A model generated the notes under the pieces. It was not told where the DNA came from and ran no database searches. It worked only from the letters and a program-made list of their open reading frames with translations. Shown in pieces: positions 16,680 through 33,239 of a stretch of DNA of 59,289 bases (position 1 is its first letter; each line of letters begins with the position of its first letter). Origin of the DNA: a virus (Duplodnaviria > Caudoviricetes); the IMG/VR virus record IMGVR_UViG_3300045120_000279, positions 1 through 59,289 of that record. One strand, given 5' to 3'. The translations under genes were made by a program, and so were the position numbers.

Positions 16680-18317
16680 CTATCGCTTCCATCCGTTGTT
16701 TGCGAGGGAGTTCAGGGCGTTGGAAGCCGCCTCGAAGCTCATGTTTGGGTCGTTGTAGCCGTAGCGTCTGAGAGTGGCAACCTGCTTGATGGTTGCCAGC
16801 TTTTTGTTCATGCGCTCGAACATGGCATTGAGCACCTGACGCGCGTGGGCGTAGGGCATCTGGTCTGGGTTCATGCCGGCCCGCAGGAGGACAGCCTTCT
16901 GCTTGTCGGATAGCTGCTTTCCCTGGTCCCAGCCACGCTCCTTGACGGGCGTGAGTTGGAGCAGGTCGAACGGGTCGATGGTCTTGGTGTTGAACCTGGC
17001 CTTGGCCACCACTCTGGCCTTGCGGGCCTCCTCGGCCAGTCGCCGGGCCTCGATCTCGTCCCTGATCTTCTGCTCCTCGGCGTCCAGGGCGTCCGTGATC
17101 CGCACCGCACCACCAGTCTCCTTGGCCTTGGCAATGGCCATCTCTACCGCCCGGTCACTGACCTTACCGCCCAGAATGTCGGCTGCGCTGATCAGTTTGT
17201 GCCTTCCAGAGTTCCCCACGAAGTCCACAATGAGGCAGGAGGGCTTGCCTGAGGCCGCTATGGCCGCTAGGCGGCCTTCTGGAGTCGGGATGCCATCAAC
17301 CAGTCCAGGAAGGGTCCTGGTCGCTCTACCGGCCATCTGAGCGTAGAGGGAACGGCTTTTGGTGGGCCTGGCCATGATGATAACCTCCACCCCAGGGTCG
17401 TCGAACCCCTCGGTCAGGACGCCGCAGTTCACAATGACCTGCACCTCTCCCCGCTGGAACGCAGCCAGCATGTCCCGCCGCTCGTCCTTGTTGGTCTTGC
17501 CGCATACCCAGTTGGCCATGCCCTGCCGGTGGCGGTTGAAGATGTTGCACAGCATCTCGGCCTGGGCCACGCCAGCGGTGAACACAATGGCCCGCCGCTT
17601 GCCCACAATGTCGATGGTGGCCGACGCCACGCCTTGTAGCTTGTCCTCGGCTTCCATGACCTTGGCCAGGTCGGCCTGGTTCAGATCACCAGCCGTGGTG
17701 CGCATGTCTCCGAAGTCCAGACCAGCAATGCTGACAAACTGCTGGTCAATGGGCACTAGCCAGCCGCCGTGAATGAGGTCCAGGATTTCAATGTCCATGG
17801 CCACCGTCTCGAATATCTGGCCAAGCGCCTCCTCGTCCGTGCGGTCGGGTGTGGCGGTGACGCCCAGAATCTTGATCTCGGGATTCCGAGCCTTGTAGTA
17901 GGCCATCACCCGTCGGTAGCTGTCGGCCGTGCTGTGATGGCACTCGTCGAAGATAAGGACTCCAAAGTCCTTGGGGTCGAACTGCCGCATGCGCTCGCCG
18001 GAGTTCTGGGTCTGCACCGTGGAGACAATGACCGGCATTTCACCGAGCAGGTCAGCCTCGGATCGGAAGTCGCCCATCTCCACGCCGCACTCCAGCCCGG
18101 TGACAGACTTGATCTTGTTACGCGCCTGCCAGATCAACTCCTCCCGGTGTGCTATGACCATGGCCCGTCTGGGCTGCATTGATTGAATGACCATGGCGAA
18201 CACCATGGTCTTGCCACCGCCGGTTGGAAGAACTGCAACCGTTGATGTTACACTTTTCCACTCCTCGATGATGTTGTCGTGCGTTTCGGTCTGGTAATCC
18301 CTGGGTTGGAATTTCAT
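16680..18317 (-). CDS. Superfamily 2 (DEAH/ResIII-like) DNA helicase
   Basis: PRDYQ, LPTGGGKT, DECHH, TAT, LTEGFDDP and QMAGRATR motifs. Confidence 0.93.
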   Translation of the reverse strand: MKFQPRDYQTETHDNIIEEWKSVTSTVAVLPTGGGKTMVFAMVIQSMQPRRAMVIAHREELIWQARNKIKSVTGLECGVEMGDFRSEADLLGEMPVIVSTVQTQNSGERMRQFDPKDFGVLIFDECHHSTADSYRRVMAYYKARNPEIKILGVTATPDRTDEEALGQIFETVAMDIEILDLIHGGWLVPIDQQFVSIAGLDFGDMRTTAGDLNQADLAKVMEAEDKLQGVASATIDIVGKRRAIVFTAGVAQAEMLCNIFNRHRQGMANWVCGKTNKDERRDMLAAFQRGEVQVIVNCGVLTEGFDDPGVEVIIMARPTKSRSLYAQMAGRATRTLPGLVDGIPTPEGRLAAIAASGKPSCLIVDFVGNSGRHKLISAADILGGKVSDRAVEMAIAKAKETGGAVRITDALDAEEQKIRDEIEARRLAEEARKARVVAKARFNTKTIDPFDLLQLTPVKERGWDQGKQLSDKQKAVLLRAGMNPDQMPYAHARQVLNAMFERMNKKLATIKQVATLRRYGYNDPNMSFEAASNALNSLANNGWKR

Positions 18318-19237
18318 TTCGCCTCCCTCATTTGCTTACTCTCCTTGGGAGCGCACGTGTCGTAACGGAACTTGCTGATCAGCCCCTTGCCGAAACAAAA
18401 ACGGCATCCGTTGGACTGGGTCTCCGGATGGCCGGCGCACACTGTGCAAACCGCATACGGAATGGCCAGCCGCATGTTGTGCCATGCCTTTTCCAGGTCG
18501 GCGAGCAGACCCGAGAAGTTGATCTCGGCATACAGAATGTCCTTGGCCTGCTGATGACCTTTGAACGCATTGATGATGGCACTCAGCTGCTTGGTCTCAC
18601 TGATGATCTCACCCTGTCGCTCCCAGAACTTCTGCACCTTCTTGGGGATGGGATAACCGAGAGCATCCTTGACGACCACCTCGGCTGGTGGTGCGGCTTT
18701 GACCTTGGGTTTTGGAGCTACCTCGGAATTCCGAGGTGCGGCGGCGGCGCGCTGTTTGCCGTCGGACGCCGTGCGGGTGACGGTCTTCACGACCTCCTTC
18801 TTTGCCTCCAGCTCCTTGCGGTATTTGGCGACCGTCTTGTCGTCCACGTCCGTCAGTTTGGCGAGCTGGACGTTGCTGAGTGTCGGCCACTCCTTCACGG
18901 CAGCCATGATGCACTGCACCTTGTCGTCCGGGCTGCGCGGTAGTCCGTGAACCGTATTGGCGAGCAGCGCGTATTGCAGGCAGTCGGTGTAGGTGCCCGT
19001 CTTCACCTCTGCCTCGATGGACTTGCGTCCGATCATGCGGGTGGCCTCGCAGCGGTGAGCACCGTCGCCCAGATACATGCGGCTCTCTTTGCTGTCCCAG
19101 AACAGAACGATGGGTGGCATCTTTTTCTTGGTCTGGTAAGCCTCGGCGTATTGAAGAACCGTATCCTTCTCAATGGTGTAGCGAACCTTCGGGCTCGCCT
19201 TGAAGTCGATGTCACTCAGGAAGATTTGTTTGGTCAT
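18314..19237 (-). CDS. ParB/Srx N-terminal domain protein with HTH and C-terminal Zn finger
   Basis: MPPIVLF..YLGDGAHRCEA (ParB GxHR-type box); ANTVHGLPRS; LSNVQLAKLTDVDDKTVAKYR HTH; CTVC..CRFCFGKG. Confidence 0.8.
   Translation of the reverse strand: MTKQIFLSDIDFKASPKVRYTIEKDTVLQYAEAYQTKKKMPPIVLFWDSKESRMYLGDGAHRCEATRMIGRKSIEAEVKTGTYTDCLQYALLANTVHGLPRSPDDKVQCIMAAVKEWPTLSNVQLAKLTDVDDKTVAKYRKELEAKKEVVKTVTRTASDGKQRAAAAPRNSEVAPKPKVKAAPPAEVVVKDALGYPIPKKVQKFWERQGEIISETKQLSAIINAFKGHQQAKDILYAEINFSGLLADLEKAWHNMRLAIPYAVCTVCAGHPETQSNGCRFCFGKGLISKFRYDTCAPKESKQMREAK
18718..18739. repeat. Palindrome, 20/22 match, in frame (APRNSEV) in ParB-HTH gene
   Basis: CTACCTCGGAATTCCGAGGTGC. Confidence 0.93.
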
Positions 19238-19354
19238 GGGGTTGGGTTTTGTGGGTTGTGAGTTCGTGACACCCACCCACGATCAGCATGATCAGGCCGA
19301 GTATCACTATGGTTGAGGCCACGAAATTGGCCGGGTCAATTTTTGGATCAGACT

Positions 19355-19561
19355 TCATGATGGGTTTCTCTCCAGTTCAGCCAGTAAGGCGTCGGCATAG
19401 TTGACCGCACACTCGGCCACCGATTGTTTAGACACTGGGATTTCTCCGTTGGCCACCATGGCCTCCATCATCATGGCCGCAAACAGCTCGCGCTTGGTGA
19501 GGCCGACAGCCCATCGCTCAGACGGGTAGGCTGCTAAATCTCCATTTTCTTTCGGACTCAT
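19355..19561 (-). CDS. Conserved small phage protein
   Basis: GLTKRELFAAMMM...AVNYADALLAEL motif common in phage hypothetical proteins. Confidence 0.7.
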   Translation of the reverse strand: MSPKENGDLAAYPSERWAVGLTKRELFAAMMMEAMVANGEIPVSKQSVAECAVNYADALLAELERNPS

Positions 19562-20652
19562 TTCACCACCTCCAGCGACCCGTCTTTGCGCTTGTCGTCG
19601 GTGATGCCGGCCAGCAGTTCATCCATCTTGGCCTTGAGCGCCTTGCCCTTGAGTTTGGTGGCTGCGCGCACCTGCGCCTCCAGCTCGCCCTTGGCAATGG
19701 TGACGGTCGCCATGAATTGAGCGGTCGTGCCGCCCGACGCCACGAACCGCGCGTGCAGCTCGTTGGGGTTGTTGACCGTCTTGGTCATGTCGCCCTCGCC
19801 GATCTTCCAGCCGGGCACTGCGTTTGGGTCCTCACGAATGAGGTCCTTGATCTTCTCCTTGCACTCGGACAGCCAACGCTCGGCCAGACCACGCCGCTCA
19901 CAGAACAGCGCGCGCTGCTCGGGCGTCCACAGGCTGACCGGGATGGCCAGAGTGGACATGGACGCCGGCACAGACACGTCCACCAGCTTGGAGTATTCGG
20001 GACAGGTGAACCGGGCCAGGCAGTATTTGCACTGCACTTCGCCAGCGGTGCGCGGTGCACCCGGTGCGTTCGACTTGAACACTCGATTAACCATCTCCGA
20101 CTGCGCCTGCTCGATGGAGATCAGGTCATACCGGCAGATGCCCGCGTCGTGCGTCACCAGCGGCTGCACGATGGACACGTCGATCTCCGTCACGCCATAG
20201 CTGCCAGCCGCCAGCGCACACTGGTCGCGCAGTTGCAGATTGCTCGGCGAGTCCTGCACTTCCCCGGGCAGCGTTTTGTATTCGATGATCAACGCCTTGG
20301 TGCCGTGAGTGACTACCAGGTCCGGCTTGGCGCTGTGGATGTGGCCTTCCTGTGACCTGAACCAGAGGCGCTCCTCCTTGATGCGTTTGACGTTCTCGGC
20401 GTCGGGGCCGAACGAGTCGATGATCAGACGCTCCCGCATTTCAACGCAGCTCTCATACACCGAGAGCTGGTCGCTGCGCAGGCCCTCCGGCGCGTCCTTG
20501 GCCAGGGCGTCGTGGATTTGCTGACCGAACAAGTTGTCGTCGGTCGTGGGCGAGGTCAGACCGCGCTGGGCCTGGTGTCGGCCCTGACAGAGTTCATCTG
20601 CCTGGGCATTGGAGGCGGACGTGCCGCCCATCACTTCTTCTTCGTGGGTCAT
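19558..20652 (-). CDS. PD-(D/E)XK exonuclease (DUF2800/Cas4-like), probable recombinase partner
   Basis: SAKPDLVV..IIEYKT, NLQL, QCKYCLARFTCP. Confidence 0.8.
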   Translation of the reverse strand: MTHEEEVMGGTSASNAQADELCQGRHQAQRGLTSPTTDDNLFGQQIHDALAKDAPEGLRSDQLSVYESCVEMRERLIIDSFGPDAENVKRIKEERLWFRSQEGHIHSAKPDLVVTHGTKALIIEYKTLPGEVQDSPSNLQLRDQCALAAGSYGVTEIDVSIVQPLVTHDAGICRYDLISIEQAQSEMVNRVFKSNAPGAPRTAGEVQCKYCLARFTCPEYSKLVDVSVPASMSTLAIPVSLWTPEQRALFCERRGLAERWLSECKEKIKDLIREDPNAVPGWKIGEGDMTKTVNNPNELHARFVASGGTTAQFMATVTIAKGELEAQVRAATKLKGKALKAKMDELLAGITDDKRKDGSLEVVK

Positions 20653-20656
20653 AGGT

Positions 20657-20872
20657 TTATAGTTTGGTTACTGCGATGCGGAATTTGAGGTTTTCGTTTT
20701 TTACCATTTGTGTCTTGAGGTTTTCCTCCAGGTTGCTCCTCAGGTTATACTCCGCCTCAGAGACGGCGTTCCTGATTTCATCCTCGGCTTCTCTCATTAA
20801 AAAACGCCTCGCTGGGGCGCTGATCTTCGGGTCGATGTAGATGTCTACGTGAATCTGGTCCAGTTGAATCAT
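20657..20872 (-). CDS. Hypothetical protein
   Basis: Tightly packed minus-strand ORF. Confidence 0.55.
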   Translation of the reverse strand: MIQLDQIHVDIYIDPKISAPARRFLMREAEDEIRNAVSEAEYNLRSNLEENLKTQMVKNENLKFRIAVTKL

Positions 20873-21165
20873 GATGCCTCCTTGCTGGCCAGCTTGACAC
20901 GGAGTTTGGTTATTTCCTTATTGAGTCTGGTCACCAGCCTGTCGTTCTCGTTGGCTTGATCTCCGATAAGCTGGTTGGCAGCTCGGTTGGCCTTGGATAG
21001 CTCCTTTACCACCTTCTCCAGACGCTCGATTTCATCCGCTAGAGACGCTCTCACATAGGCAGTCTCTCGCTCTAGTTGTCCTATTTGTTCTCGTGTGAAA
21101 CCCCTGGTGCTGTCATCACCAGACGTGAATTGCCACAGCTTTAATCCCTGGTGCCACTTGCTCAT
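20869..21165 (-). CDS. Hypothetical coiled-coil protein
   Basis: ATGA overlaps with neighbours. Confidence 0.6.
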   Translation of the reverse strand: MSKWHQGLKLWQFTSGDDSTRGFTREQIGQLERETAYVRASLADEIERLEKVVKELSKANRAANQLIGDQANENDRLVTRLNKEITKLRVKLASKEAS

Positions 21166-21389
21166 TCGTTTTCCTCCAGCGCCCGCTTGGCGATGAAGTG
21201 TGAGTGGGTGCGGTTGCCCCGGTAGTCCTCGTCCCGGATTTGCTCCAGCGAACGACGCAGGGATCGGATGATGCGAACGTAGTTGGCTATCTCCTTTTCG
21301 TAGTCATATCCGGATTGGATTTGGTTGGGTCTGACAGCTGGGTCCACGTAGCCATCTGACTTGTGTGGGTATTCACCTGAGCAGCTCAT
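21162..21389 (-). CDS. Hypothetical protein
   Basis: ATGA overlaps with neighbours. Confidence 0.55.
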   Translation of the reverse strand: MSCSGEYPHKSDGYVDPAVRPNQIQSGYDYEKEIANYVRIIRSLRRSLEQIRDEDYRGNRTHSHFIAKRALEENE

Positions 21390-22324
21390 ACCTCACTCTC
21401 CTTCTTGAGGTCGGCCACCACGTCGTCCCACCGCTTGACGATCTCCGCCATAGTCTTGGGGAACTTGGTGTTCGTGCGCTCGATGCTGTCGCCCATGTCG
21501 GCCAAACCCAGTCCAGCCATGTAGTTGATCAGGGTGGACTCGGTGATGTCTTCCCGCAGGCAGAGCAGCCGGATTTTCTCCGTGTTCTCGTCGCTGGTCT
21601 CGGTCACGATCTCGGCGTCCGAGGGCAGTGGCGGTTCTACCTCGGAATTCCGAGGTAGGTCTGGGACGGGCTCATTCCCGAAGATGGGCTTCGAGATCGC
21701 CTTGCGCTCCGTGTGCGCTGTGTCCATCTCCTCCTTGAGGTAGAAGCCACCCAACATGGTCGGGAAGGCCGTCCGCATGGCGTCGGCCTCGGCACACTTG
21801 CAGATCATCCCCGCCGGGTCGTCCGTCCAGATTTTTGTGTTCTTCTTGAACCGGGAGAGCCGGACCTTTTTGTAGATGGGGATGGACCTGTTTTTGAAAT
21901 AGACGGCGGCCCAGCCACCCAGCAGCCGGTCGGTGTCTCGGGTATAGTCGCCCTCGACTTCAATCTCCGCGCCGTCCCGAATGACCACCACTCCGGACTT
22001 CATGCCGTCGAAGTCCGGGTTGACCTGGGCGCGCTTGAGGAACGCCTGGTGCGCGGTGATCAGTGAGAACTTGGGACCGTCCTGCGTGTCGTAGCCTAGC
22101 ATGAAGGCGTCGCCCTCGAACGGGTTGAGCCGGCGTGCCTGCGCCATCATCAGGAATTTCATGCACTCGTTGTCGCTGGGCAGCGCGCCGCTCTTGGTTG
22201 GTTGCGCGACCAGGTTCTTAACGATGCTGATGCTGAGTTTGATGGAGTCTTTCCCGCCGAACGGGACGAACTCCATCATCTTGGTTTCTTTTGTGGTGCT
22301 TACTGCGTTTGTGGGTTCACTCAT
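21386..22324 (-). CDS. bet: RecT/Red-beta-like single-strand annealing protein
   Basis: LNPFEGDAFMLGY, GGWAAVYFKNR, W..DPAGMICKCAEADAMRTAFP. Confidence 0.88.
   Translation of the reverse strand: MSEPTNAVSTTKETKMMEFVPFGGKDSIKLSISIVKNLVAQPTKSGALPSDNECMKFLMMAQARRLNPFEGDAFMLGYDTQDGPKFSLITAHQAFLKRAQVNPDFDGMKSGVVVIRDGAEIEVEGDYTRDTDRLLGGWAAVYFKNRSIPIYKKVRLSRFKKNTKIWTDDPAGMICKCAEADAMRTAFPTMLGGFYLKEEMDTAHTERKAISKPIFGNEPVPDLPRNSEVEPPLPSDAEIVTETSDENTEKIRLLCLREDITESTLINYMAGLGLADMGDSIERTNTKFPKTMAEIVKRWDDVVADLKKESEV
21637..21658. repeat. 22-bp palindrome, exact copy, in frame (LPRNSEV) in recombinase linker
   Basis: CTACCTCGGAATTCCGAGGTAG read directly. Confidence 0.97.
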
Positions 22325-22339
22325 ATAGTTTTTGATGCT

Positions 22340-22396
22340 AAAAAATGACGGTCTGTCTCGTGTCAGCTATTTTAGCTAAACGAGTCCAGACCGTCA
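22340..22396 (-). terminator. Long hairpin plus U-tract ending the ubiquitin-like operon
   Basis: TGACGGTCTG (22346-55) pairs with CAGACCGTCA (22387-96); A-run at 22340-45 gives a U-tract on the minus strand. Confidence 0.65.
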
Positions 22397-22410
22397 CGCT
22401 TTTTCTGTAA

Positions 22411-23739
22411 TTAACCTCCCAACCCGTGCCCTTGACCGTATCCCGGATACCTGACCTCACCGTTGGGAATGGGATGGCCCTCGTAGTCCATCCGCTCCTC
22501 CTCGTCCGTCTCGGTGGGCAGACCAACCTCACTGGGCGCACCACCGGCTTTCTCCTGCTTCAGCGCCCGCTTCAGCTCCCGGTTGAGTTCTTGCTGGTGA
22601 ATCTTGGCGACCATGTCCGAGTAGGCCGACACACTCATGTCGTGTTTGAACATGAGGTCCATCATGACCAGCTCCTCGTCCTCCAGCGTCATCAGCATCT
22701 CGGCTATTTTGATGAACATATCCGACGTGAAGGCCAGGAGCTTGGGATCGTTTTTGGGAGTGCCCCTCGACTCCTTGATCAGTTCCTTTATGTCGGCCTC
22801 ACAGCGGTCCTTGTCCCACTTGGTGACGGTGACGCATCGGTCCAGGTAAGTGCGCTGGGCCACAACGTATCCACTCGAAAAGTGGCCCATTGGCTGGACG
22901 GTCGGCCGAGGTGGTGCGTCGATGATGTAGTTCTCCTTCCACACTTCGGGGAAGGTTGTCTCTGGTGCTGGTGGCGTGCACATCTCGAAGGCCGCCAACC
23001 GGGCGTCCACGTCATCTGGCATCATGGACCGCATGTGCTCGGGGATGGTGGCCTTGACAGCCGTCACATCCCAGAATGTGTCCAGCTTGATGGACGACAG
23101 GTGGAAGCGGGACTGGTAGACGCGGGCATGAATGTCGTAGTGATTGCTGCCCACCTTACCAATGGTGATGTGAATGCCGTCCTGTCCGACCTCGTTGGCC
23201 GTGTCGGTGCTGGACTGGAACGCACTGCCTGAGCAGTGGTGATGGATGGTGCAGTAATACAGCCACTCGTCACCGAACTGCGCGCGCTGGATGGCCGTCT
23301 GTGGGTGCTCGTCCAGCTCCCGCGTGGTCATGCCCGTGCGACCGCGCTGCGGGAACGCCCACGCCTTCCACTCCCGAGTGGTGGCGTTGACGTAGACGCG
23401 CACCTGCGCCTCGCTGTGGTGCTCCGCCTGCGTCCACTCGAAGAACGCCATGACCTCGTCCCACCACTGGCGGTTGGGCACGTTCATCTTGGGACCCTCC
23501 CACTCATACTTGGCGGTCGTCTCGGTTACCGTGTGCTCGAATATGCAGGTCATCAGACCGGTGGCCTGCTTCACTTGTTTGATTTTGCTCATTGTATTTG
23601 TGTTACTGGTTTGACTGACTGGGGTTTCAATTTTCCGTTCGACGAGTGGCAGTTGCTGCGGGTAGGTCTGGGGAACTTGCCCCATGCCTCGTGCCCCGCC
23701 GTCACTCACCAATGATTTGCGATGCTTCTTCCGGCCCAT
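22411..23739 (-). CDS. JAB/MPN+ metallo-isopeptidase (prokaryotic JAB); start may be 23592
   Basis: SEAQV (catalytic Glu), WAFPQ, TIHHHCSGSAFQSSTD (HxH..S..D), DGIHITIG. Confidence 0.85.
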   Translation of the reverse strand: MGRKKHRKSLVSDGGARGMGQVPQTYPQQLPLVERKIETPVSQTSNTNTMSKIKQVKQATGLMTCIFEHTVTETTAKYEWEGPKMNVPNRQWWDEVMAFFEWTQAEHHSEAQVRVYVNATTREWKAWAFPQRGRTGMTTRELDEHPQTAIQRAQFGDEWLYYCTIHHHCSGSAFQSSTDTANEVGQDGIHITIGKVGSNHYDIHARVYQSRFHLSSIKLDTFWDVTAVKATIPEHMRSMMPDDVDARLAAFEMCTPPAPETTFPEVWKENYIIDAPPRPTVQPMGHFSSGYVVAQRTYLDRCVTVTKWDKDRCEADIKELIKESRGTPKNDPKLLAFTSDMFIKIAEMLMTLEDEELVMMDLMFKHDMSVSAYSDMVAKIHQQELNRELKRALKQEKAGGAPSEVGLPTETDEEERMDYEGHPIPNGEVRYPGYGQGHGLGG

Positions 23740-25024
23740 AGTTATTCCTGATGTAGGTTGTTAATTGACGTTTCAGTTCTTCCTGATTTATTTGGACAGT
23801 CGGGTCCTCGTTGTTTTCCGAATCGTGGTTCCCATACGTGTGCTCCCCAACCTGCTGCATCTCCACGTTGCCGAGGGCGTTGTCGTCCACGATGTCATTG
23901 ACATAATTCATCATGGCTTCGAGGGTGTCGTGATTGGTCACGATACTAGACACCTCGTTGCGTGAGAAGTGATGGCTGTATACCCCACGCCGGTTGACGC
24001 GGTAGGTGCATGTGCCCACATCCACGTCCGTCACCGTCACCGGTATGGCGAATATGTTTGGGTTGGCAGCTTGGGCCCGCTCGGCTGCCGTAGCGGCCGG
24101 CCCGCGCACCACGTTTCCATCCCGACCGTAGACTCGGGCTTGTGCTCCCGAGAAGCGTGGCGGATGGAACCCGAACTCCACCCAGTCCTTCAGCTGATCG
24201 AACGTGATCAACTCCTCAGGCGGCAGCCGCCCAAAGATGGCCATGAGATGACCACGCACGATCTCGTTCTGCGGGGCCACCTTCATGAGCTGCACCAACG
24301 TGGCGTTGATGCACACCTCCAACTGCATCTTGCGCTGTGGTGGTTCATTGGCCAGCACTCCCGCATCCAGCAGTGCGAATGACCAGGAATCGCTCACGTT
24401 GCCAGCCGTGCGGTCGGCGATGATCTCATGTCCCGTCCACAGCTTGGCTCGGACGATCTGGTTCGTGGTGTTGTTGTGCGCATCCAGGTAATAATCCTGG
24501 TTGTGGTTCAGGTTGACCACGCCCGTGCGATCCCGGATACCCGACCGACGGGAGTCCAGAAACTGGCGCATGGTCATGAGGTCAGTTACCACTCGGAATT
24601 CCGAGTTGGTCAACTTGAACGCCGGTTTTTCTTCCTTGGCTTTTTTGGCTTTCATGGCTTCTTCATTGTTGTCCGGGTCGCCCGGCATTATTGGTGTTCC
24701 GTCCAGTCGAACGCCGACCGCTTTGGCCGGAATCGGTGGACCGTCGGGTGTCTCGGAGGGTAGTGTGCCCCACGTAGAGGGCACTGGCGGTTCCCACATA
24801 GAGAGCACTGGCGGTTCCCACACCAAGTTCCCTGGCGGGTGTATCTCCTGCTCCACTGGCGTGACTGTCAGTGGCTGTATCACCACCGCGTCGTAAGGAC
24901 CCGTTGGATCGCTTTCTGGGACTGTTTGTTGTGCCCGTAGTAGTGCAGCCTCGAATTCGTCGAGCTGCTGATTGATTTCCATGGCCTGCCGCTCGGTGGC
25001 GCCTGGCTCGTGTTGTTCTGGCAT
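23702..25024 (-). CDS. Hypothetical 440-aa protein inside the ubiquitin-like operon
   Basis: Long ORF between E1 and JAB; Pro-rich N-terminus with WEPPV duplication. Confidence 0.7.
   Translation of the reverse strand: MPEQHEPGATERQAMEINQQLDEFEAALLRAQQTVPESDPTGPYDAVVIQPLTVTPVEQEIHPPGNLVWEPPVLSMWEPPVPSTWGTLPSETPDGPPIPAKAVGVRLDGTPIMPGDPDNNEEAMKAKKAKEEKPAFKLTNSEFRVVTDLMTMRQFLDSRRSGIRDRTGVVNLNHNQDYYLDAHNNTTNQIVRAKLWTGHEIIADRTAGNVSDSWSFALLDAGVLANEPPQRKMQLEVCINATLVQLMKVAPQNEIVRGHLMAIFGRLPPEELITFDQLKDWVEFGFHPPRFSGAQARVYGRDGNVVRGPAATAAERAQAANPNIFAIPVTVTDVDVGTCTYRVNRRGVYSHHFSRNEVSSIVTNHDTLEAMMNYVNDIVDDNALGNVEMQQVGEHTYGNHDSENNEDPTVQINQEELKRQLTTYIRNNYGPEEASQIIGE
24588..24609. repeat. Palindrome variant inside 440-aa gene
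   Basis: ACCACTCGGAATTCCGAGTTGG; 16-bp symmetric core ACTCGGAATTCCGAGT; translated as TNSEFRV. Confidence 0.85.
24769..24822. repeat. In-frame 24-bp tandem duplication
   Basis: GCACTGGCGGTTCCCACA at 24781 and 24805; encodes WEPPVLSMWEPPVPSTW. Confidence 0.8.
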
Positions 25025-25032
25025 AATTTTCC

Positions 25033-25692
25033 TTAGAGTTCACCGGTTTTGAACGTCTCCTGACGTGTTAGATTTTGAACCAATTTGTGCGGGAGGAATT
25101 TCTCGTCCTCCTGCGTGAGTTTGATGGCCTCCATTCCCCACACGACGTAGAGATGGGCAGCCAGGGCGGCGGCCATGAAGTTGGCCGTGACAAGCTGCAC
25201 GTTGGCGGTCTGCGCCTCACCCGTGCAACCGATGGACCGGGCGCGCGGGTCGTTGCGCCGGTCGTTGAGCATTTCCGGATACATGACCCGAGGGTCAAGC
25301 CGGGTGGTTTTCCAGTAAGGCAGGTAGACGTAAGCCTCGCTGGAATGAACCTCGTTGGCCGCAAAGATCACGCGGCAGTCGGTCATGTCGGAAGCCCGCA
25401 GCGCGGCTATGCGCCCAGGGTTGTTATCCACCACGCACATCAGCCAGTCCTGTGCGGAGTGCGCAATCAGCGTCTCCGAATACCAGGTCGGGATGTGGTG
25501 GCAGTTGTATTTCTCGGCCAGGGCGAACGCCTTGTTCTGGCCGATTTCTTTTTCTGTGAACAGCTGACGGTTGAGGTTTTTCTTCTCCAACTTGTCGCCA
25601 TCCACCAGCGTGACGTTGTCCTTGCCTGCGAGCAGGCACATGGTCGGGGCCAGCCAACTGCCGACGCCGCCAACTCCAATGATGTAGATCAT
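25033..25692 (-). CDS. ThiF/E1-like ubiquitin-activating enzyme
   Basis: IIGVGGVGS, LVDGDKLEKKNLNRQLF, IGQNKA, CVVDN, candidate catalytic Cys in SIGCTG, QLVTANFMAA. Confidence 0.92.
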   Translation of the reverse strand: MIYIIGVGGVGSWLAPTMCLLAGKDNVTLVDGDKLEKKNLNRQLFTEKEIGQNKAFALAEKYNCHHIPTWYSETLIAHSAQDWLMCVVDNNPGRIAALRASDMTDCRVIFAANEVHSSEAYVYLPYWKTTRLDPRVMYPEMLNDRRNDPRARSIGCTGEAQTANVQLVTANFMAAALAAHLYVVWGMEAIKLTQEDEKFLPHKLVQNLTRQETFKTGEL

Positions 25693-25696
25693 ACAA

Positions 25697-26125
25697 TTAA
25701 CCTCCTTGTTCGTCGTCTTCGTGCTCCTCGTCCTGATCATCCTCCTCGTCAGTGCCGAGTGGGCTTTGCTTCACGTCCATCGAGAAGACCAGGTCCACCA
25801 GCTTTTTGTTGACGGGATTGCGTTGCATCTTGGCTTGCAGGTTGGCCTTGGCGATCTCCAGTGTTTTCCAGAAAGCCTTTCGGTCTTTGGTGGGCACCAG
25901 CAAATCGAACAGTGCGTTGTCATACGCCATCCACGACGCCAGGATGTAATCCGGAATGCGATAGCCACGCCCCATGCTGTAGTCACCCAGCGTTGGGCGG
26001 GTTGAATCCGTGTTTAGGAACGTGAGGAACAGCTCAAAGCTTTCAAGTGGCGCACCATTTTTGGTGTGGCCAAAGTGGATAGCCTGGAACAGCTCCGGTC
26101 TCTTGTTGGGTTTTTTATTGCTCAT
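25697..26125 (-). CDS. Hypothetical protein with acidic tail, between E2 and E1
   Basis: ORF tightly packed in the operon; ends DEEDDQDEEHEDDEQGG. Confidence 0.7.
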   Translation of the reverse strand: MSNKKPNKRPELFQAIHFGHTKNGAPLESFELFLTFLNTDSTRPTLGDYSMGRGYRIPDYILASWMAYDNALFDLLVPTKDRKAFWKTLEIAKANLQAKMQRNPVNKKLVDLVFSMDVKQSPLGTDEEDDQDEEHEDDEQGG

Positions 26126-26126
26126 T

Positions 26127-26855
26127 TTAAGGGCGGATGTTTTGGGTGATGAAGTCCACTCCTATTTTCTTACAGCTGGCCTCCCAGTCACCGACCGGCG
26201 GCTGCTGAATGAATCCTTTGTCCTTGGCGATGAACCGGAACAGATTGCGCGTGGCCTTCCGTATCGAGTCGCCTTGGCTGGTATACAGGTCCTTCTGCCA
26301 GATGCTGCGCTGGAACTGCTGCCACACTCGCTGCGCACCATGAATCATGCTGGCGTTGACCTGACTGTCCGAGTTAGTCCCGGGACACAGCTTGCAATCC
26401 TCGTAGAGGTTGCTGAGGGGGAGGCGCCAGCACCTACCCTGCGGATCGAAGGCGGTGAGGAACTGACAGGTCTCCTGGTTCGCATCCCCGAGCACCACTG
26501 ACAAGATGACGCGCATGGTCGTGGGTGGCACCCAGATCATGGGCATGGTGGGTCCTTCCGAGTCGAAGGCAGGATACAATACTTCACCGTCCAACAGGTA
26601 GACGGTCGTGAGGGGAATGCTGTTTAGCGGCATGTTGACCACCCGATTGCCGGGTGCCAGGGTGATGTTGGCCATGCCGGGCAGACCAGCAACGCCGGTG
26701 AGGTGAGCCATGCTGATGGCATTGGTGGCGACCCGGGGCACGTTCTTGCTCATGGCCGTCATGAACTGATCAGTCAGCTCCACGGCGCGCACGACTTGCT
26801 CCACTTGATGCAGGCCGCCTCCTGAGTCGATTGTGTAAAAAGTTTCAGATTTCAT
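26127..26855 (-). CDS. Prokaryotic E2-like (UBC-fold) conjugating enzyme
   Basis: WRLPLSNLYEDCKLCPG resembles the prokaryotic E2 P..N.y.dg.lC.G active-site motif; lies between Ubl and E1. Confidence 0.7.
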   Translation of the reverse strand: MKSETFYTIDSGGGLHQVEQVVRAVELTDQFMTAMSKNVPRVATNAISMAHLTGVAGLPGMANITLAPGNRVVNMPLNSIPLTTVYLLDGEVLYPAFDSEGPTMPMIWVPPTTMRVILSVVLGDANQETCQFLTAFDPQGRCWRLPLSNLYEDCKLCPGTNSDSQVNASMIHGAQRVWQQFQRSIWQKDLYTSQGDSIRKATRNLFRFIAKDKGFIQQPPVGDWEASCKKIGVDFITQNIRP

Positions 26856-26867
26856 TTTTAAGACAAT

Positions 26868-26904
26868 AAAAAGGGGCCGGCCAGGATTGCTCCCAGCCGG
26901 CCCC
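26868..26904 (-). terminator. Intrinsic terminator between Ubl and E2 genes
   Basis: Minus strand GGGGCCGGC-N14-GCCGGCCCC followed by TTTTT. Confidence 0.8.
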
Positions 26905-26918
26905 GTGTTGACTACCGT

Positions 26919-27182
26919 TTAGCTCTTACGGAAGAGCCCCTTGATGAACTGCACGAACCGTGCAGCCTTCGTGTTGGCCTTGGTCTCGATGAGCACCGTC
27001 ACGCCGTCCGTGAGGACCGACGAGTTGCCCTGCTCCACGCCGTTGACGAGCGCGCGGACATTGTCACCGAAGCCCAGCTGGGCCTTGACCGACGCCGAGC
27101 CCAGCACGGTGCTGACCGTGGGCGGGTTGTCGTAGGTCTTGGTGATTTCTTCGGAACCGTATTTGACTTTGATGATCGTCAT
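26919..27182 (-). CDS. Ubiquitin-like (beta-grasp) protein with C-terminal extension
   Basis: IKVKYG...TVSTVL...RALVNGVEQ..SVLTDGVTVLIE is a ThiS/MoaD/Ub-type pattern; first gene of the E2-E1-JAB operon. Confidence 0.8.
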   Translation of the reverse strand: MTIIKVKYGSEEITKTYDNPPTVSTVLGSASVKAQLGFGDNVRALVNGVEQGNSSVLTDGVTVLIETKANTKAARFVQFIKGLFRKS

Positions 27183-27220
27183 ACTTTTATTTGGTTACTG
27201 AGTTTGCGTTTGGTTGTGGT

Positions 27221-27652
27221 TTAGCCCAGGACCTGTTCAGCGGTGACCACGTCGGCCACCAGTGCGCTGACCTCCTCCCGCAGCTTGCTGATGCGTTCAT
27301 TGCAGCCCTTGATGGCGGCGTTGAGCCCGTCGATCTCGCTGAGGTGGCACTTGGACTTTTCTTCCACGTTCTTGGTCGTGGCGTCATTGCGATCCTTGAT
27401 CGCCTTGAGCACCGCAACCTCGAACTGGTTCGGCGTGACCGAGGCCGGGCGGCCGAGCACCTGGTCAGCAGTGAGGATGTCACCGACGATCTTGGCGACC
27501 TTCTCCTGATGCACCCGGATGGCTTCCTGGTAGTCCTTGATCTTGGCCTGCTCAGCCAGGATGTAGGTGATCTTGGCGCTGGCCTTGTCCACCACGACCG
27601 CCTGTTTGTCCTTGTTCAGCTGAGCCAAGGCATTCTGTGTTACTTCGTTCAT
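27221..27652 (-). CDS. Hypothetical coiled-coil protein with internal repeat
   Basis: ATG at 27652; DILTADQVLG and DVVTAEQVLG repeat. Confidence 0.7.
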   Translation of the reverse strand: MNEVTQNALAQLNKDKQAVVVDKASAKITYILAEQAKIKDYQEAIRVHQEKVAKIVGDILTADQVLGRPASVTPNQFEVAVLKAIKDRNDATTKNVEEKSKCHLSEIDGLNAAIKGCNERISKLREEVSALVADVVTAEQVLG

Positions 27653-27804
27653 TTTGTTGTTTTCCCCCGGATAACGGCCCGAGAGTCGCCGCGTCCCTGT
27701 CGGATGCTCCTGTTGGAGCGGTTTTAGTTCAGCGCACGGACGCGCGCTGTTCGCCGGCTGTCTGGCCGACTGCTCCCCGCACAGACATGCGGAGAGAAAA
27801 TGGC

Positions 27805-27826
27805 CTACCTCGGAATTCCGAGGTAG
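27805..27826. repeat. 22-bp palindrome, exact copy, intergenic (symmetry extends 27803-27828)
   Basis: GCCTACCTCGGAATTCCGAGGTAGGC. Confidence 0.97.
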
Positions 27827-27883
27827 GCAGCCCATGAGGCACCATTTGGGCGGTGGTTGTCAACCATTTTAAGCTCATTGAGC

Positions 27884-28093
27884 TTATTGTGGATCAGGGT
27901 CCTGCCAGGCGTAGACCGTATAGTTGGTTTCGAGTGCCACCTCGAACTTGATGTCCTTTTTGCACGCTGGGCATGCGATCTTTTCCTCCCCCGGCACTGG
28001 ATCGTCCTGCTCCCACTCAACCTTCAGACGGGCATTGCAATGTGGGCAGATTATGTCATGACTATGCTCTGCCTCTACGAGTTCTGGATTCAT
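27884..28093 (-). CDS. Small Zn-ribbon protein
   Basis: CPHC...CPAC. Confidence 0.7.
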   Translation of the reverse strand: MNPELVEAEHSHDIICPHCNARLKVEWEQDDPVPGEEKIACPACKKDIKFEVALETNYTVYAWQDPDPQ

Positions 28094-28272
28094 TTTTCCT
28101 TTCTGGGCAGCAGTTTGAACTGCCACTTGAGCTTCTGGTAGGGCTTGCCGAGCGTGGTGAGCCCGTCAGCCCGGCGCTTGTCCCGGCGCTTTTGCTGCAT
28201 GAACAGCCGACGCTCATGCCGTGCTTTCTCAATGGCCTCCCACGCAGCGAGGCGGGCTTTGACGGAGTTCAC
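28090..28272 (-). CDS. Small basic hypothetical protein
   Basis: Overlapping start/stop with neighbours. Confidence 0.5.
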   Translation of the reverse strand: MNSVKARLAAWEAIEKARHERRLFMQQKRRDKRRADGLTTLGKPYQKLKWQFKLLPRKEK

Positions 28273-28565
28273 TTCTCAAACCCCCTGACTGGCATTTTGA
28301 GTTTGATGATGCGCAGCTTGAGCAGCCTCCGAATAGTCTCTGCGTCGGTGGTCAACTCTGCCATGTGCTGATGCGCCAGGTAGCTGGTGCCGTTGCGGTA
28401 GTCCGCGCGCTTGATGCGGGCCTTGTTTAGACGGTAGGTAACCTGACACGGACTCAGACCGGTTTCCCGGACAATGAGCTTCGTGGAGAAGCCCATGCCG
28501 GCGAGCATGGCACAGCGCAGCTCGTCACTGCGGGTCCAGGTGACCCGGATGGGTTTAGTGTTCAC
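28269..28565 (-). CDS. HTH DNA-binding protein
   Basis: MGFSTKLIVRETGLSPCQVTYRL HTH-like pattern. Confidence 0.6.
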   Translation of the reverse strand: MNTKPIRVTWTRSDELRCAMLAGMGFSTKLIVRETGLSPCQVTYRLNKARIKRADYRNGTSYLAHQHMAELTTDAETIRRLLKLRIIKLKMPVRGFEK

Positions 28566-28972
28566 TGTCCCCTCCCCATTTTGATGGCTTCGTTGATGAT
28601 GTTCAGGTTGCAGCCGCAGCTTGGGCAGAACCTGGCGTGATGGGTGTCTGCGGAGTGCGTCAACGCCTTGGCCCGCCGCTGGTAAACCCGCTTGGGTTTC
28701 GGGTTGAGCCCGATGTTGTCCCAGAGCGGTGGTTTGATGTGGCGCTCCTTGAGGTCACGCTCCAACTGATCCAGTCCGGCCTGGTTGATTTTGGGAGCCT
28801 TGGCCTTCTCCCGTTGCTGCACCCATTTGCTGGGTTTGTAGTGCTCGGGGTGGTTGGCCTTCATGTGGTTGGCCAGGCAGGCATTGAGCCGGCCAGCACC
28901 GAGGTTGTCGCCGGCTTTGTAGTGCACGGTAAACTTCTTGTCACAGTGCAGGCAGGTAGCGGTTGATTTCAC
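28562..28972 (-). CDS. Zn-finger protein
   Basis: CLHC...HMKANH (C2H2-like) and FCPSCGC. Confidence 0.65.
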   Translation of the reverse strand: MKSTATCLHCDKKFTVHYKAGDNLGAGRLNACLANHMKANHPEHYKPSKWVQQREKAKAPKINQAGLDQLERDLKERHIKPPLWDNIGLNPKPKRVYQRRAKALTHSADTHHARFCPSCGCNLNIINEAIKMGRGQ

Positions 28973-29154
28973 TGAGCCACCTGCACTTTCGCGTCGATCT
29001 CAATGACAATGTTGCTCGGACTGAGCACAATGCCATTGTGATCCGGCTTGATGGGTATGACGACCCGCCGACGGTTGGGGCTGGGCTTATCCAGACCCTT
29101 ATCCCTGCGCCAGCGTGCCACATTTGCGGCGACTTGTTTGGGGGTGAGGCTCAT
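28969..29154 (-). CDS. Hypothetical protein
   Basis: Coupled ORF in the early operon. Confidence 0.5.
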   Translation of the reverse strand: MSLTPKQVAANVARWRRDKGLDKPSPNRRRVVIPIKPDHNGIVLSPSNIVIEIDAKVQVAQ

Positions 29155-29330
29155 TGTGCCCCTCCCTTCACTGCGTAGGTCACAGCGAGCTTGTGGCCCC
29201 TGCCGAAGCTGGCCGCCACAATCTGGACCTGTCCGGCCGGTCGGGGCACGAACTCGTTAATGTTGATCCAATACCGAGTGATCCGGCCACCGAAGGCAGC
29301 CAGCGGATTGGTTTTTGCTTTTCTAGGCAT
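29151..29330 (-). CDS. Hypothetical protein
   Basis: ATG at 29330 (MPRKAKTN). Confidence 0.5.
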   Translation of the reverse strand: MPRKAKTNPLAAFGGRITRYWININEFVPRPAGQVQIVAASFGRGHKLAVTYAVKGGAQ

Positions 29331-29404
29331 TTTGTTGTTGTTGTTTTCGATGACCACCATGGCCAGCGAACTCAACCCCAGTTGCCTGGGGTTGAGTTCA
29401 TTGG

Positions 29405-29992
29405 TCAAGGACTGTCCTTGAGTGTGTATTGGTAGTGGCCTTCCACGAGTTCCGTGGTAATGACATGACCGTATCTACGCAAGTTGCGGCAGATGGCATT
29501 CATTTTGACCGTTGGATTGTCCGACTCCCGAATGGCCGCTCGCAATTCCGAGGTCTTGACAGCCTTCCCCTTGTGCTCAACCAGGACTTTGAGCACGAGA
29601 GCATTGATGGGATTTAGTTTCAGTTTCTCTCTCACCAGATTCGCCACCTTTTTAATGCTCCAATCACTGCGCCCGCGTATGATTTTTTTCAGGCGTCCTT
29701 GGGAGGTGTGAGTCCACACCCAGGCATTCAGGCCATCGACCGCCCCTCGGCGGATCAGTGTGGCAGTGTCCAGGTCTGGAATGTCCTCCACCGATTTCTC
29801 GCGTTTCTTGGCGTCGTTTTCCCGGCGGATGATGTTGATGGAGGCCAGCAGTTCGGGCCTTACTTTTTGGTAAAGCAGCTCCAGCAATTCCTCACGGGTG
29901 TATTCGTCTCGCTGCTCGAAGGCGGCCAGCAGGACCTGACTAACTACCGAAGATGACTCGCATCTTTTCCGTGATCCGCTTGAAACGATCAT
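29405..29992 (-). CDS. Hypothetical, possibly winged-helix DNA-binding protein (start uncertain)
   Basis: VLKVLVEHKGKAVKTSELRAAI...VKMNAICRNLRR resembles an OmpR-type wHTH. Confidence 0.5.
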   Translation of the reverse strand: MIVSSGSRKRCESSSVVSQVLLAAFEQRDEYTREELLELLYQKVRPELLASINIIRRENDAKKREKSVEDIPDLDTATLIRRGAVDGLNAWVWTHTSQGRLKKIIRGRSDWSIKKVANLVREKLKLNPINALVLKVLVEHKGKAVKTSELRAAIRESDNPTVKMNAICRNLRRYGHVITTELVEGHYQYTLKDSP

Positions 29993-30893
29993 AGATTTCC
30001 TTTTTATCCGATGGTTCAGTGATCTGCATCTGTTTGGCAGAGCTGCGCCCGGTCAGCAACCGCTCCAGGCCCGTAATGTATTGCAGCAGGTTCCTGCGCA
30101 CCGGACGCACCACCGTTCCTTTTTGTGGCCGGTCCTCAACCTTGAGCGAGTGCTCGTAGGCGGCCAGCACGGCAATCTGTGCGGACTCCGTGGTGGAGTT
30201 GCGAACTTCCCGCAGTATTTCCACCACCGTGTCGCCATTGGTGTTGTGCTGGGCGAATACGGACCCCGCCGCGCGCATGACGTTCTCGTTCTTCAACCCG
30301 GCCAGGGCAGCCAGGATGCCCTTGGGCATCTTGGTCACATTGACCCGAGCCTCGGTCATGAGCTTGCGAGCGTGGGCAATGGCCATCTGCCGGGACAGTG
30401 TGCCCTTTGGTAGTGAGAACATGGCCTCGGCCGCTTCACGGCCGACCGAATAGGCGCGCATGGCATAGAGCGCGTGTTCGACCAGCTCGTCCTTCTTGAT
30501 GCCCTTGCCGTGCTGGTTGTTCAACATGCGTGGCAACAGGTCACTGACCATCTCGTCCTCGATCTGCACCTGGTAAACCCTGATCTTCTCTTGTTGATCA
30601 ATGATTTCAGCATAGCCGGCCAGCCGGTGATTGCCGCTGATGGGCACCAGTCGCCACTTGCCATCTCTTTTCTGGCGGTTGAGCACGACCATGGGGAATG
30701 TGTCACCCCGCTCCATCGCCAGCGCGTAGTTCATGACTGTTTCCTGATCCAGCGCCTGCGAAATGCGGGCGTGGTTTTTAAGACCGGACTCCCGGTCAAT
30801 GTCGCCAAAGGGCACCTCGATCACGTCGAAGTCGATCTTTTGGCGGTGCAGTATGGCCTCAACCACACTGTCTCTATTGGTTATTACTTTCAT
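29940..30893 (-). CDS. Second ParB/Srx N-terminal domain protein (alternative start 30983)
   Basis: NHARISQALDQETVMNYALAMERGDTFPMVVL..ISGNHRLAG..LNNQHG. Confidence 0.75.
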   Translation of the reverse strand: MKVITNRDSVVEAILHRQKIDFDVIEVPFGDIDRESGLKNHARISQALDQETVMNYALAMERGDTFPMVVLNRQKRDGKWRLVPISGNHRLAGYAEIIDQQEKIRVYQVQIEDEMVSDLLPRMLNNQHGKGIKKDELVEHALYAMRAYSVGREAAEAMFSLPKGTLSRQMAIAHARKLMTEARVNVTKMPKGILAALAGLKNENVMRAAGSVFAQHNTNGDTVVEILREVRNSTTESAQIAVLAAYEHSLKVEDRPQKGTVVRPVRRNLLQYITGLERLLTGRSSAKQMQITEPSDKKEIYDRFKRITEKMRVIFGS

Positions 30894-30946
30894 TTTGGGT
30901 CTTTCTTGGGTTACTCCCCGGTCTTCATGACCGGGGAAATTAAGTT

Positions 30947-30968
30947 CTACCTCGGAATTCCGAGGTAG
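30947..30968. repeat. 22-bp palindrome, exact copy, at the 5' end of the second ParB-like gene
   Basis: CTACCTCGGAATTCCGAGGTAG; adjacent hairpin TCCCCGGTC/GACCGGGGA at 30915-30937. Confidence 0.97.
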
Positions 30969-30979
30969 GATTTGGGAGG

Positions 30980-31225
30980 TCACGTTCGCCGGTCGGCGGC
31001 TTCAATGATTTTGTTGATCTCGGCAGCGGTCAGTCGTCTGGTGCAGTCGTGATCCTTGTTGGTGAGACAGATGATACTCGGTCCAGCGCCACTGTTTTCT
31101 TCCAGTGGTCCGACCCTTCCTGTGTCCGGGTTGATGCGGCAGTATTCCGGGTTGCCGTCGTATTGCACGATCAGGTTGTCGGAGCAGATGGCGCACGTGA
31201 ACTTCGGCTTGGGCTTGTTGTGCAT
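30980..31225 (-). CDS. Small Cys/His (Zn-binding) protein
   Basis: CAIC...CLTNKDH. Confidence 0.55.
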   Translation of the reverse strand: MHNKPKPKFTCAICSDNLIVQYDGNPEYCRINPDTGRVGPLEENSGAGPSIICLTNKDHDCTRRLTAAEINKIIEAADRRT

Positions 31226-33158: not shown

Positions 33159-33198
33159 TTTGTTTGTTATTTGATGTTTCCTGCCCTTTGTGGGCAAG

Positions 33199-33239
33199 GC
33201 TGCAATGCAGCTGTCAGCCATCGGTGAGGATGGCTGAGG
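33199..33239. promoter_or_regulatory. GCTGCAATGCAGC motif plus adjacent hairpin, copy 1
   Basis: Motif at 33199-33211; TCAGCCATC/GATGGCTGA stem. Confidence 0.5.

Follow-up and report, generated by a model that had tools for sequence, protein, structure and literature searches.

A ParB-like protein encoded beside a phage helicase gene is the predicted reader of an evenly spaced palindrome array with a site in the protein's own gene

The DNA analysed here (hereafter the window) is the complete virus record IMGVR_UViG_3300045120_000279 (Caudoviricetes), a phage genome of 59,289 bp with terminal repeats. It carries an array of a 22-nt palindrome, CTACCTCGGAATTCCGAGGTAG, and encodes two ParB-like proteins, ParB1 (18314-19237, minus strand) and ParB2 (29940-30893, minus strand), both of which a sequence-only reading of the window had proposed as readers of the array. 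This proposal stood for one gene only: ParB1 is present in five of the five array-bearing records compared, whereas ParB2 is absent from four records that keep the array. ParB1 also belongs to a family whose genes typically hold a palindrome of their own just after the helix-turn-helix (HTH) codons, and the type of HTH helix predicts the sequence of that palindrome. With good confidence, although from sequence comparison and structure models, we therefore predict that ParB1 binds the array.

The 22-mer occurs in nine exact copies, to which can be added one copy with two mismatches (18718-18739, in the ParB1 gene) and one with three (47197-47218); none was found in 100 shuffles. Its 14-nt core, CTCGGAWWTCCGAG, is present in 13 copies, including positions 15047 and 24592, and 18 copies are counted when up to one mismatch is allowed. 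Two of the exact 22-mers, at 5272-5293 and 9877-9898, lie within an open reading frame (ORF) of 2966 aa, the first at its 5′ end (codon 47 from the first possible start) and the second in frame, where it reads LPRNSEV. The others are found at 21637-21658 (within the RecT gene, at codon 223), 27805-27826 (at the start of gene 27221-27835), 30947-30968 (intergenic, upstream of ParB2), 36180-36201 (between divergent genes), 41630-41651 (intergenic), 51790-51811 (beginning directly after the stop codon of gene 50374-51789) and 56174-56195 (between convergent genes, adjoining the terminase gene). Those at 27805, 36180, 41630 and 56174 extend to 26-nt palindromes, the first of which spans 27803-27828. 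At 15047-15060, within a primase-like gene, and at 24592-24605, within a 440-aa ORF, an exact core stands between diverged flanks. The copy in the ParB1 gene has the exact core as well, and the variant at 47197-47218, within a 339-aa ORF, has the same change in both flanks and AAAT at its centre.

The gaps between the 13 core sites range from 2.9 to 5.6 kb, with one gap of 8.4 kb across the record ends. Such evenness, with a coefficient of variation (CV) of 0.32, was reached by just 5 of 100,000 random placements (P about 5e-5). As had been noted from the sequence, spacing is tightest in the 18.7-31 kb interval (2919, 2951, 3217 and 3142 nt when the core-only site at 24592 is included). Of the 13 sites, five are intergenic, two more are at gene starts and six are within genes, while non-coding DNA makes up 9% of the genome (binomial P 0.0045 for at least five intergenic sites). 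The exact 22-mers in genes are all read in a single frame, giving LPRNSEV; another of the three frames meets a stop codon, as the sequence itself shows. At their two central positions the sites always have A or T. Recognisable promoters are lacking at most sites, and a sigma-70-type scan of 26-43 kb returned five promoter-like sites against 4.2 expected, none of them at a palindrome, with the proviso that the phage may use other promoters. No match to the exact 22-mer was found in the viral_contigs collection. There is no avoidance of EcoRI sites: GAATTC occurs 26 times versus 8.7 expected, and 13 of these occurrences are outside the exact-core sites. The palindromes are most likely protein-binding sites.

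ParB1 is a protein of 307 aa, counted from the ATG at 19237, and consists of a ParB/Srx N-domain, an HTH (helix DDKTVA), a disordered linker, a helical hairpin and a four-cysteine zinc ribbon, which appears in the homologue alignment as CxxCxG...CxxCxGxG. It matches phrog_1033, 'ParB-like partition protein', with E 2.9e-9 over residues 35-166, that is, the N-domain and HTH; the top Foldseek matches are Noc, ParB and KorB (E 2e-6 to 2e-4), and VIA gave Z scores of 11.8 for PadC and 11.4 for KorB. The site at 18718-18739 encodes codons 167-173 (A-P-R-N-S-E-V), right after the HTH and at the start of the disordered linker, where the predicted local distance difference test (pLDDT) score falls below 50 (residues 167-181). 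The domain order and the position of the site just after the HTH, both first described from the sequence alone, were thereby borne out. ParB1 has GDGAHR in place of GERR and A-N-x-x-H-G as box III; in ParB2 the corresponding motifs are SGNHR and L-N-x-x-H-G, in agreement with the GxHR boxes reported earlier. In canonical ParB proteins, residues of box II (GERRxRA) and box III (ENLQRE) serve in nucleotide binding and hydrolysis and include the catalytic Glu. From the alignment, the Glu positions of GERR and ENLQRE read as Ala in ParB1; both proteins retain the box II Arg and the box III Asn and have lost both Glu positions. Across the ParB1 homologues, the G..HR and N..HG positions of the N-domain are invariant. 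Compared with the canonical ParABS CTPase, ParB1 and ParB2 thus share the N-terminal fold and lack both the box II/III Glu residues and a ParA partner.

The absence of ParA, already remarked on from the sequence, was confirmed: a PHROGs scan of 60 proteins and a Pfam scan of 71 revealed no ParA, and no integrase or DNA polymerase either. No motif resembling LG-R/K-GL, given as the ParA-binding motif in the available part of a survey of ParB folds (PMC12704722), is visible at the N-terminus of either ParB1 or ParB2. At E up to 0.1, Pfam ParB_N (PF02195) matches neither protein. ParB1 has no recognisable canonical ParB dimerisation domain at its C-terminus, and profile scans gave no O-like match for it. 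With the C-domain of ParB1 as query, an Atlas search yielded unnamed viral clusters only, tblastn of ParB1 and its L077 homologue against phages found only three uncultured records (29-41% identity), and single-protein locus searches with ParB1 and ParB2 gave no loci.

A large protein collection contains 23 ParB1 homologues, several of them on contigs of 56-58 kb, and 7 of the 23 have a precomputed PF02195 match. Two complete relatives were compared in full, G001 of 57.9 kb, in which ParB1 is 47-49% identical, and G002 of 50.2 kb, in which it is 38-39% identical. Within two mismatches of the core, G001 has 15 sites and G002 has 9, against none for a reversed-pattern control, and the core is constant among the genome of the window (G000), G001 and G002 while the flanks are genome-specific. 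The RecT orthologue of G001 carries a site no more than 12 codons from the position of 21637-21658, and the G001 orthologue of gene 27221-27835 has one at the same place. When 73 proteins were searched by tblastn, ParB1 orthologues were found in G001 and G002 in the same place beside the helicase gene. No ParB2 was detected in either genome by this search, and a ParB2-family profile found only the ParB1 orthologues there. In the reverse test, a 16-nt core pattern run over all viral contigs matched 43 stretches on 36 contigs, with at least two matches on three contigs only (G002, G010 and G011). The check for ParB genes covered these three of the 36 contigs; all three encode a ParB1-family protein and none encodes ParB2. 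The sequence-only reading had itself named array-bearing relatives without the gene as the observation that would tell against a reader. Such relatives exist for ParB2 (G001, G002, G010 and G011), and none of the five array-bearing records lacks ParB1.

Two side observations concern the positions of the sites in related phages. A degenerate copy of the core is found at the same terminase codon in all three phages (57361-57374 in the window, 52930 in G001 and 31532 in G002), where constraint on the protein, and not a role as a site, may have preserved it. In another metagenome (run X3), contigs of a related phage are collinear with 17385-30970 and 31366-36180; one of them ends at palindrome 30947-30968 and another has a joint landing at 36180, as expected if the relative carries the repeat at the same places.

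The site in the ParB1 gene is the counterpart of a feature found throughout the family. A metagenome scan reported 512 relatives, of which 80 loci were kept, and 46 family genes were aligned, including the near-duplicates L066/L067, L104/L114 and L048/L054. In 36 of the 46, the HTH codons are closely followed by a perfect palindrome, whose arms are at least 9 nt long (9-13) in 32. In the alignment of ParB1 homologues the translated site appears as a conserved R-N/K-S-E in an otherwise variable linker. Across the family genes the palindromes are read in all three frames and encode unrelated peptides, which argues that the palindrome is a feature of the DNA and not of the protein. Palindromes with arms of at least 9 nt are fivefold denser in the family genes (0.74 per kb) than in the flanking 381 kb (0.14 per kb). 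All 25 relatives scanned match phrog_1033, although in five (L016, L019, L022, L023 and L110) the match is weak or phrog_1033 is not the top family. In L104 (10704-11390) and L065 (7677-8924) the same module with an in-gene palindrome has a DNA methyltransferase directly after it. The near-identical proteins of L048 and L054 have palindromes that agree in their outer arms and differ in their inner parts, which remain self-complementary in each, and L060 contains two such palindromes 25 nt apart (2267-2312). This suggests that palindromy itself is under selection or is maintained by some mechanism.

The palindrome sequence varies by lineage and is unique in its record in the more distant relatives. 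A single, in-gene copy was found in G004, G005 (54 kb, complete), G006 (a 40-kb provirus), G007 (83 kb), G008 and G009 (a 67-kb provirus). Arrays occur in the clade of G000, which comprises G000, G001, G002, L039 (with a one-letter variant of the core, and counted over 19.6 kb only) and G011, with 9-19 site copies across the genome; further arrays are those of G003 (five copies, two in the gene) and L104/L114 (three copies, one in the gene). In a quick version of the tree the array-bearing lineages fall in three separate branches, and well-supported branches force at least two changes. This pattern makes it likely that the original state was a single site in the gene itself, next to a helicase gene, and that this home site was later multiplied in several lineages.

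To see whether the protein is the reader, the ten residues of the second HTH helix were compared with the seven inner nucleotides of the palindrome arm in 36 genes. A CGGA-type half-site accompanies the [S/D]DKT[V/I] helix, to which that of ParB1 belongs, in 13 of 13 genes and is found in none of the 23 others; two further helix classes each recur with a half-site of their own in separate clades. Among 35 non-redundant genes, helix distance correlated with half-site distance (r = 0.46), whereas N-domain distance did not (r = 0.00). With the N-domain controlled for, the partial r between helix and site was 0.47, a value reached by none of 5000 permutations.

The sites could also act as folded structures, that is, as hairpins or cruciforms serving as RNA terminators, processing sites or single-strand DNA initiation signals. 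Each can form a stem of 9-13 bp with a 4-nt loop, two were flagged as terminator-like, their excess in intergenic DNA and at gene starts would suit such a role, and in one subgroup of relatives the inner part varies and yet stays self-complementary. We nevertheless regard this explanation as very improbable. In 26-43 kb there were 21 terminator-like matches against 18.9 in shuffles, and the one clear terminator of the region looks different; the T-runs are weak, and six sites are within genes, one of them 4.7 kb into a 9-kb ORF. Moreover, in G001 and G002 the left half of a site varies independently of the right: a change in one arm has no compensating change in the other, and complementarity is not above that of re-paired halves (P 0.24-0.62). 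Because the half-sites are independent, the centre consists always of A/T, which would suit a bent duplex site, terminator-like matches do not exceed those in shuffles and the clear terminator differs, a duplex site bound by a dimer is favoured over a hairpin.

ParB2 is an orphan ParB of more canonical layout, with an N-domain, an HTH_ParB-like domain and a helical C-domain. Its family profile matches Spo0J, Noc and ParB chains over the N-domain and HTH with E about 1e-6 (8e-7 for Spo0J), and the model (pLDDT 94) matches Noc, ParB and KorB in Foldseek at E 3e-6; the match to phrog_1033 is weak (E 0.0035). There are 1151 representative relatives, and 5 of 50 ParB2 relatives match PF02195, at E 1.5e-4 or weaker. 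Searches with a smaller ParB2-family alignment found no viral locus, and a word-index search found two proteins. An orthologue was found only in the nearest relative, where it is 93% identical and is encoded on a contig of 57,677 bp; an 86%-identical ParB1 is likewise encoded on a 57,677-bp contig, and a contig from another metagenome also spans the ParB2 region. Since ParB2 is absent from G001, G002, G010 and G011, all of which have the array, it appears to be a separately acquired, lineage-specific orphan ParB that is dispensable for the array.

ParB2 might still be a reader or co-reader in this phage. The exact site at 30947-30968, reported earlier as lying about 54 bp upstream of the likely ATG or within the first codons, is indeed intergenic, 53 nt separating it from the ATG at 30893, and the more canonical ParB character of ParB2 and the high identity kept in the nearest relative would fit the same idea. 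This is quite improbable, however, given the four array-bearing records without it, an HTH unlike the helix class paired with this half-site, and a gene in which no palindrome with arms of at least 8 nt was found. ParB2 may instead be regulated by the array site upstream. Between that site and its start codon lies a GC-rich palindrome with 9-nt arms (30915-30937), unique in the genome. The idea of a dioxygenase partner for ParB2 was dropped, as the Pfam scan of 71 proteins revealed no enzyme of this kind.

As to what ParB1 does at its sites, gene context points to replication or recombination and not to gene silencing. ParB1 is part of a conserved gene module of exonuclease, annealing protein, ParB1, helicase and primase. 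In the window this block lies on the minus strand and comprises the primase-like gene (14938-15933; weak PHROG matches), the superfamily 2 (SF2) DNA helicase (phrog_16; 16680-18317), whose start overlaps the ParB1 stop by 4 nt, ParB1, the PD-(D/E)XK exonuclease (19558-20652; PHROGs, Pfam) and the RecT-family annealing protein (21386-22324). In 9 of 15 loci of relatives at 26-51% identity a phrog_16 helicase is encoded at most two genes downstream, followed by a primase in six, and an exonuclease and a RecT- or Sak4-type annealing protein are often upstream in these 15 loci. In G003 the same N-domain and HTH are fused to a C-terminus that matches phrog_678, 'replication initiation O-like' (E 1.6e-10), with two palindrome copies in the linker codons between the two parts, and the next gene encodes a DnaC-like helicase loader (E 1.4e-22). 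No initiator candidate other than ParB1 was recognised in the phage genome by PHROGs and Pfam scans. Because of the helicase-primase module and the O-like/DnaC-like layout of G003, a protein that binds origin or loading sites is tentatively favoured over a silencing coat.

The proposed mechanism is as follows. A dimer of ParB1 most likely uses its HTH to bind the palindrome, with its core CTCGGAWWTCCGAG, as duplex DNA. In the wider family, a ParB/Srx N-domain and HTH of the phrog_1033 type are combined with C-terminal parts that vary. Each member tends to hold its cognate palindrome within the gene that encodes it, where the HTH-coding segment ends, and in most relatives this is the sole copy in the genome; in the clade of this phage the site has been multiplied over the genome, here to 13 copies. 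ParB1 would presumably work with the helicase whose gene overlaps its stop codon and mark loading places for the phage helicase-primase or recombination machinery, much as lambda O does at the origin within gene O. On this view the lattice would provide loading or origin sites at even intervals, and the N-domain might add a step dependent on nucleoside triphosphate (NTP). That ParB1 both reads the palindromes and has such a helicase, origin or loading role is, taken as a whole, an evenly balanced proposition.

Several observations weigh against this combined reading. The helix codons are only about 20-100 nt from the palindrome; recombination could carry helix and palindrome together, and their covariation may partly be linkage. 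L048 and L054 share the helix and the outer arms of the palindrome, and their inner parts differ, each still being palindromic, a difference for which reading by the helix does not account. The array of G001 is unevenly spaced (CV 0.87-0.95), and the ParB1 gene of G002 has no in-gene site within two mismatches. As regards replication, the genes of the family have as a rule a single palindrome and not several iterons with an AT-rich tract, the AT excess beside the in-gene palindromes being mild (+4 to +10 points between -80 and +20 nt), and 13 origins in 59 kb would be unusual. Furthermore, in L014 (G005; 4495-7197) the same module with an in-gene palindrome is fused to a DNA methyltransferase, and since some homologues are fused in this way the ParB-N and HTH module is not tied to replication. 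Finally, a 76-aa Xre-type HTH protein (42804-43034, minus strand) is also kept in G001 (44% identity) and G002 (39%), and small Xre dimers typically bind palindromes of this size. This protein or a host factor could be the reader, the copy in the ParB1 gene being an ordinary member of the array. We consider this improbable, as it leaves unexplained both the palindrome at the same place in the ParB1-family genes of unrelated phages (36 of the 46) and the prediction of the half-site by the ParB1 helix class.

The sequence-only reading had proposed a coat formed by sliding clamps. Applied to ParB1, this would be a KorB- or Noc-like, NTP-gated clamp that loads at the palindromes and spreads over a few kb, so that sites about 4.5 kb apart would cover the genome without ParA, for silencing, nuclease protection or condensation into a replication compartment. 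The ParB/Srx fold with its invariant G..HR and N..HG positions fits a clamp, even spacing suits a function of limited range, a comparable number of KorB operators is found on the 60-kb plasmid RK2, and the methyltransferase fusions fit a load-and-slide delivery device. ParB folds bind CTP, ATP or GTP and are often orphan and phage-borne, according to the part of the survey available (PMC12704722). On the other hand, most relatives have a single site, which makes no call for genome-wide spreading, and the conserved partners are a helicase and a primase, not regulators. The replacement of both Glu positions by Ala and the lack of a recognised canonical dimerisation domain in ParB1 count against a clamp as well. 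A clamp is therefore possible but rather unlikely; it and the loading-site model are not mutually exclusive.

A broader and rather speculative proposition, which we also hold unlikely at present, is that ParB1-type proteins use the ParB/Srx nucleotide-switch fold to organise phage replication, as a class that has so far gone unrecognised, that their origin is in the linker codons of their own gene and has in several lineages been multiplied independently into an evenly spaced lattice, and that the repeats of the Cluster O mycobacteriophages (see below) are the same thing. If it were true, at least a dozen defined sites would serve these phages for replication, or for helicase loading in recombination-dependent replication, and the replication reading would imply a new type of initiator and a new use of the ParB fold. 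The rule linking helix class to half-site predicts the sites of hundreds of uncultured ParB-like proteins. The present analysis newly distinguishes between the two ParB-like genes and brings in a home site within the gene, the rule relating helix to site and the helicase-primase context. No description of a ParB-fold initiator or of an in-gene palindrome was found in the literature searched, most subscription journals being outside the search. Dispersed palindrome arrays in seemingly non-temperate phages have stood without a reader or function since 2015 (PMC4351075), and a candidate reader can now be named.

The genome has a GC content of about 60% and a coding fraction of about 91%; most of its genes are without a known family, and megablast of the 18-31 kb region against GenBank phages gave no match. 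Other recognisable genes encode a ThiF-like protein, a C-methyltransferase and the terminase, besides the 2966-aa ORF (5134-14034, plus strand). The latter contains two exact sites and has no match in PHROGs, Pfam or NCBIfam; its orthologues in G001 (2629 aa) and G002 (3443 aa) align well only in the C-terminal third. The ThiF-like E1 protein (25033-25740, minus strand) has a weak match to the PRTRC ThiF model, below cut-off (E 2.4e-9), and its gene is conserved in G001 and G002, while a 442-aa protein (22411-23739, minus strand) has a very weak match to PRTRC protein A (E 0.0033). Together with ParB1, these weak PRTRC-type matches within 22411-27835 bring to mind the plasmid 'ParB-related, ThiF-related cassette'. 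A 63-aa protein (35749-35940, minus strand) has a DnaJ-type CxxCxGxG zinc motif, like in kind to the C-terminal ribbon of ParB1. At 36887-37146, within ORF 36476-37621, a 69-nt unit is present three times in tandem (71-73% identity over 122 nt). A perfect palindrome with 14-nt arms and a 4-nt loop is found at 29368-29399, at the junction of genes 29151-29408 and 29405-29992; it is unrelated to the array and may represent a terminator or regulatory hairpin.

By analogy, the closest working counterparts are KorB and its operators on RK2 for the array, and lambda O with its origin for the in-gene site. The lambda origin lies within gene O, and a similar layout of origin in initiator gene is that of SPP1 G38P and oriL. 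As in lambda O, the site of ParB1 is within its own gene, in the linker codons that separate the DNA-binding N-terminal part from the C-terminal part, and the gene adjoins a helicase or loader gene; the G003 relative, with an O-like C-terminus followed by a DnaC-like loader, comes closer still. In contrast, lambda O has four iterons and an AT-rich tract where the ParB1 gene has, as a rule, one palindrome, the N-domain of ParB1 is a ParB/Srx fold without O homology, its helicase is of SF2 and not a DnaB with loader, and its sites are 13 and genome-wide. KorB and its OB operators on the IncP plasmid RK2 (a subject of PMC11790492 and PMC13584720) are alike in that an HTH protein of ParB fold is associated with about a dozen copies of one palindrome on a replicon of about 60 kb, ParA not being needed at most sites. 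The 13 core sites of ParB1 likewise amount to many operator palindromes. However, KorB has canonical CTP-binding boxes and acts with KorA or TrbA at promoters, whereas ParB1 has GxHR, N..HG and a zinc-ribbon C-domain, its array sites are mostly off recognisable promoters, with one in its own gene, and its neighbours are a helicase and a primase.

Among phages, the Cluster O mycobacteriophages (Corndog) have more than 30 copies of a 17-bp dyad repeat, in and between genes, and are not apparently temperate; from what is accessible of that report, its authors predicted a dimeric binder, gave the function as unknown and set aside the ParB-like gp90, which they did not link to the repeats (PMC4351075). 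We find that Corndog gp90 is of the same module type (phrog_1033, E 4.5e-16, residues 8-154) and count 24 copies of the repeat in 24.8 kb, none of them within gp90. The Cluster O repeats differ from the present array in spacer length and in being denser, about one per kb in the right arm.

The chromosomal ParB/Spo0J-parS and Noc-NBS systems resemble ParB1 in combining a ParB fold and HTH with palindromic sites, which are multiple and dispersed in the case of Noc. In B. subtilis, a parS copy lies within the spo0J gene. ParB1 differs from them in having no ParA or ParA-binding motif, non-canonical boxes, another C-domain and a place in a phage replication module. The ParB-fold activators of phage thymine dioxygenases are, like the proteins described here, orphan phage ParB homologues without ParA, but they have no DNA-binding domain and pair with a 5mYOX enzyme, as described in the available excerpt (PMC13229309). 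Neither sequence nor AlphaFold3 predicts the nucleotide specificity of ParB folds, according to the survey portion at hand (PMC12704722), and the accessible sections of these two papers (PMC12704722, of 2025, and PMC13229309, of 2026) do not mention in-gene sites or arrays. Judged by sequence comparison, the present case would thus appear to be a variation both on the ParB/KorB site systems and on the layouts in which the origin lies within the initiator gene.

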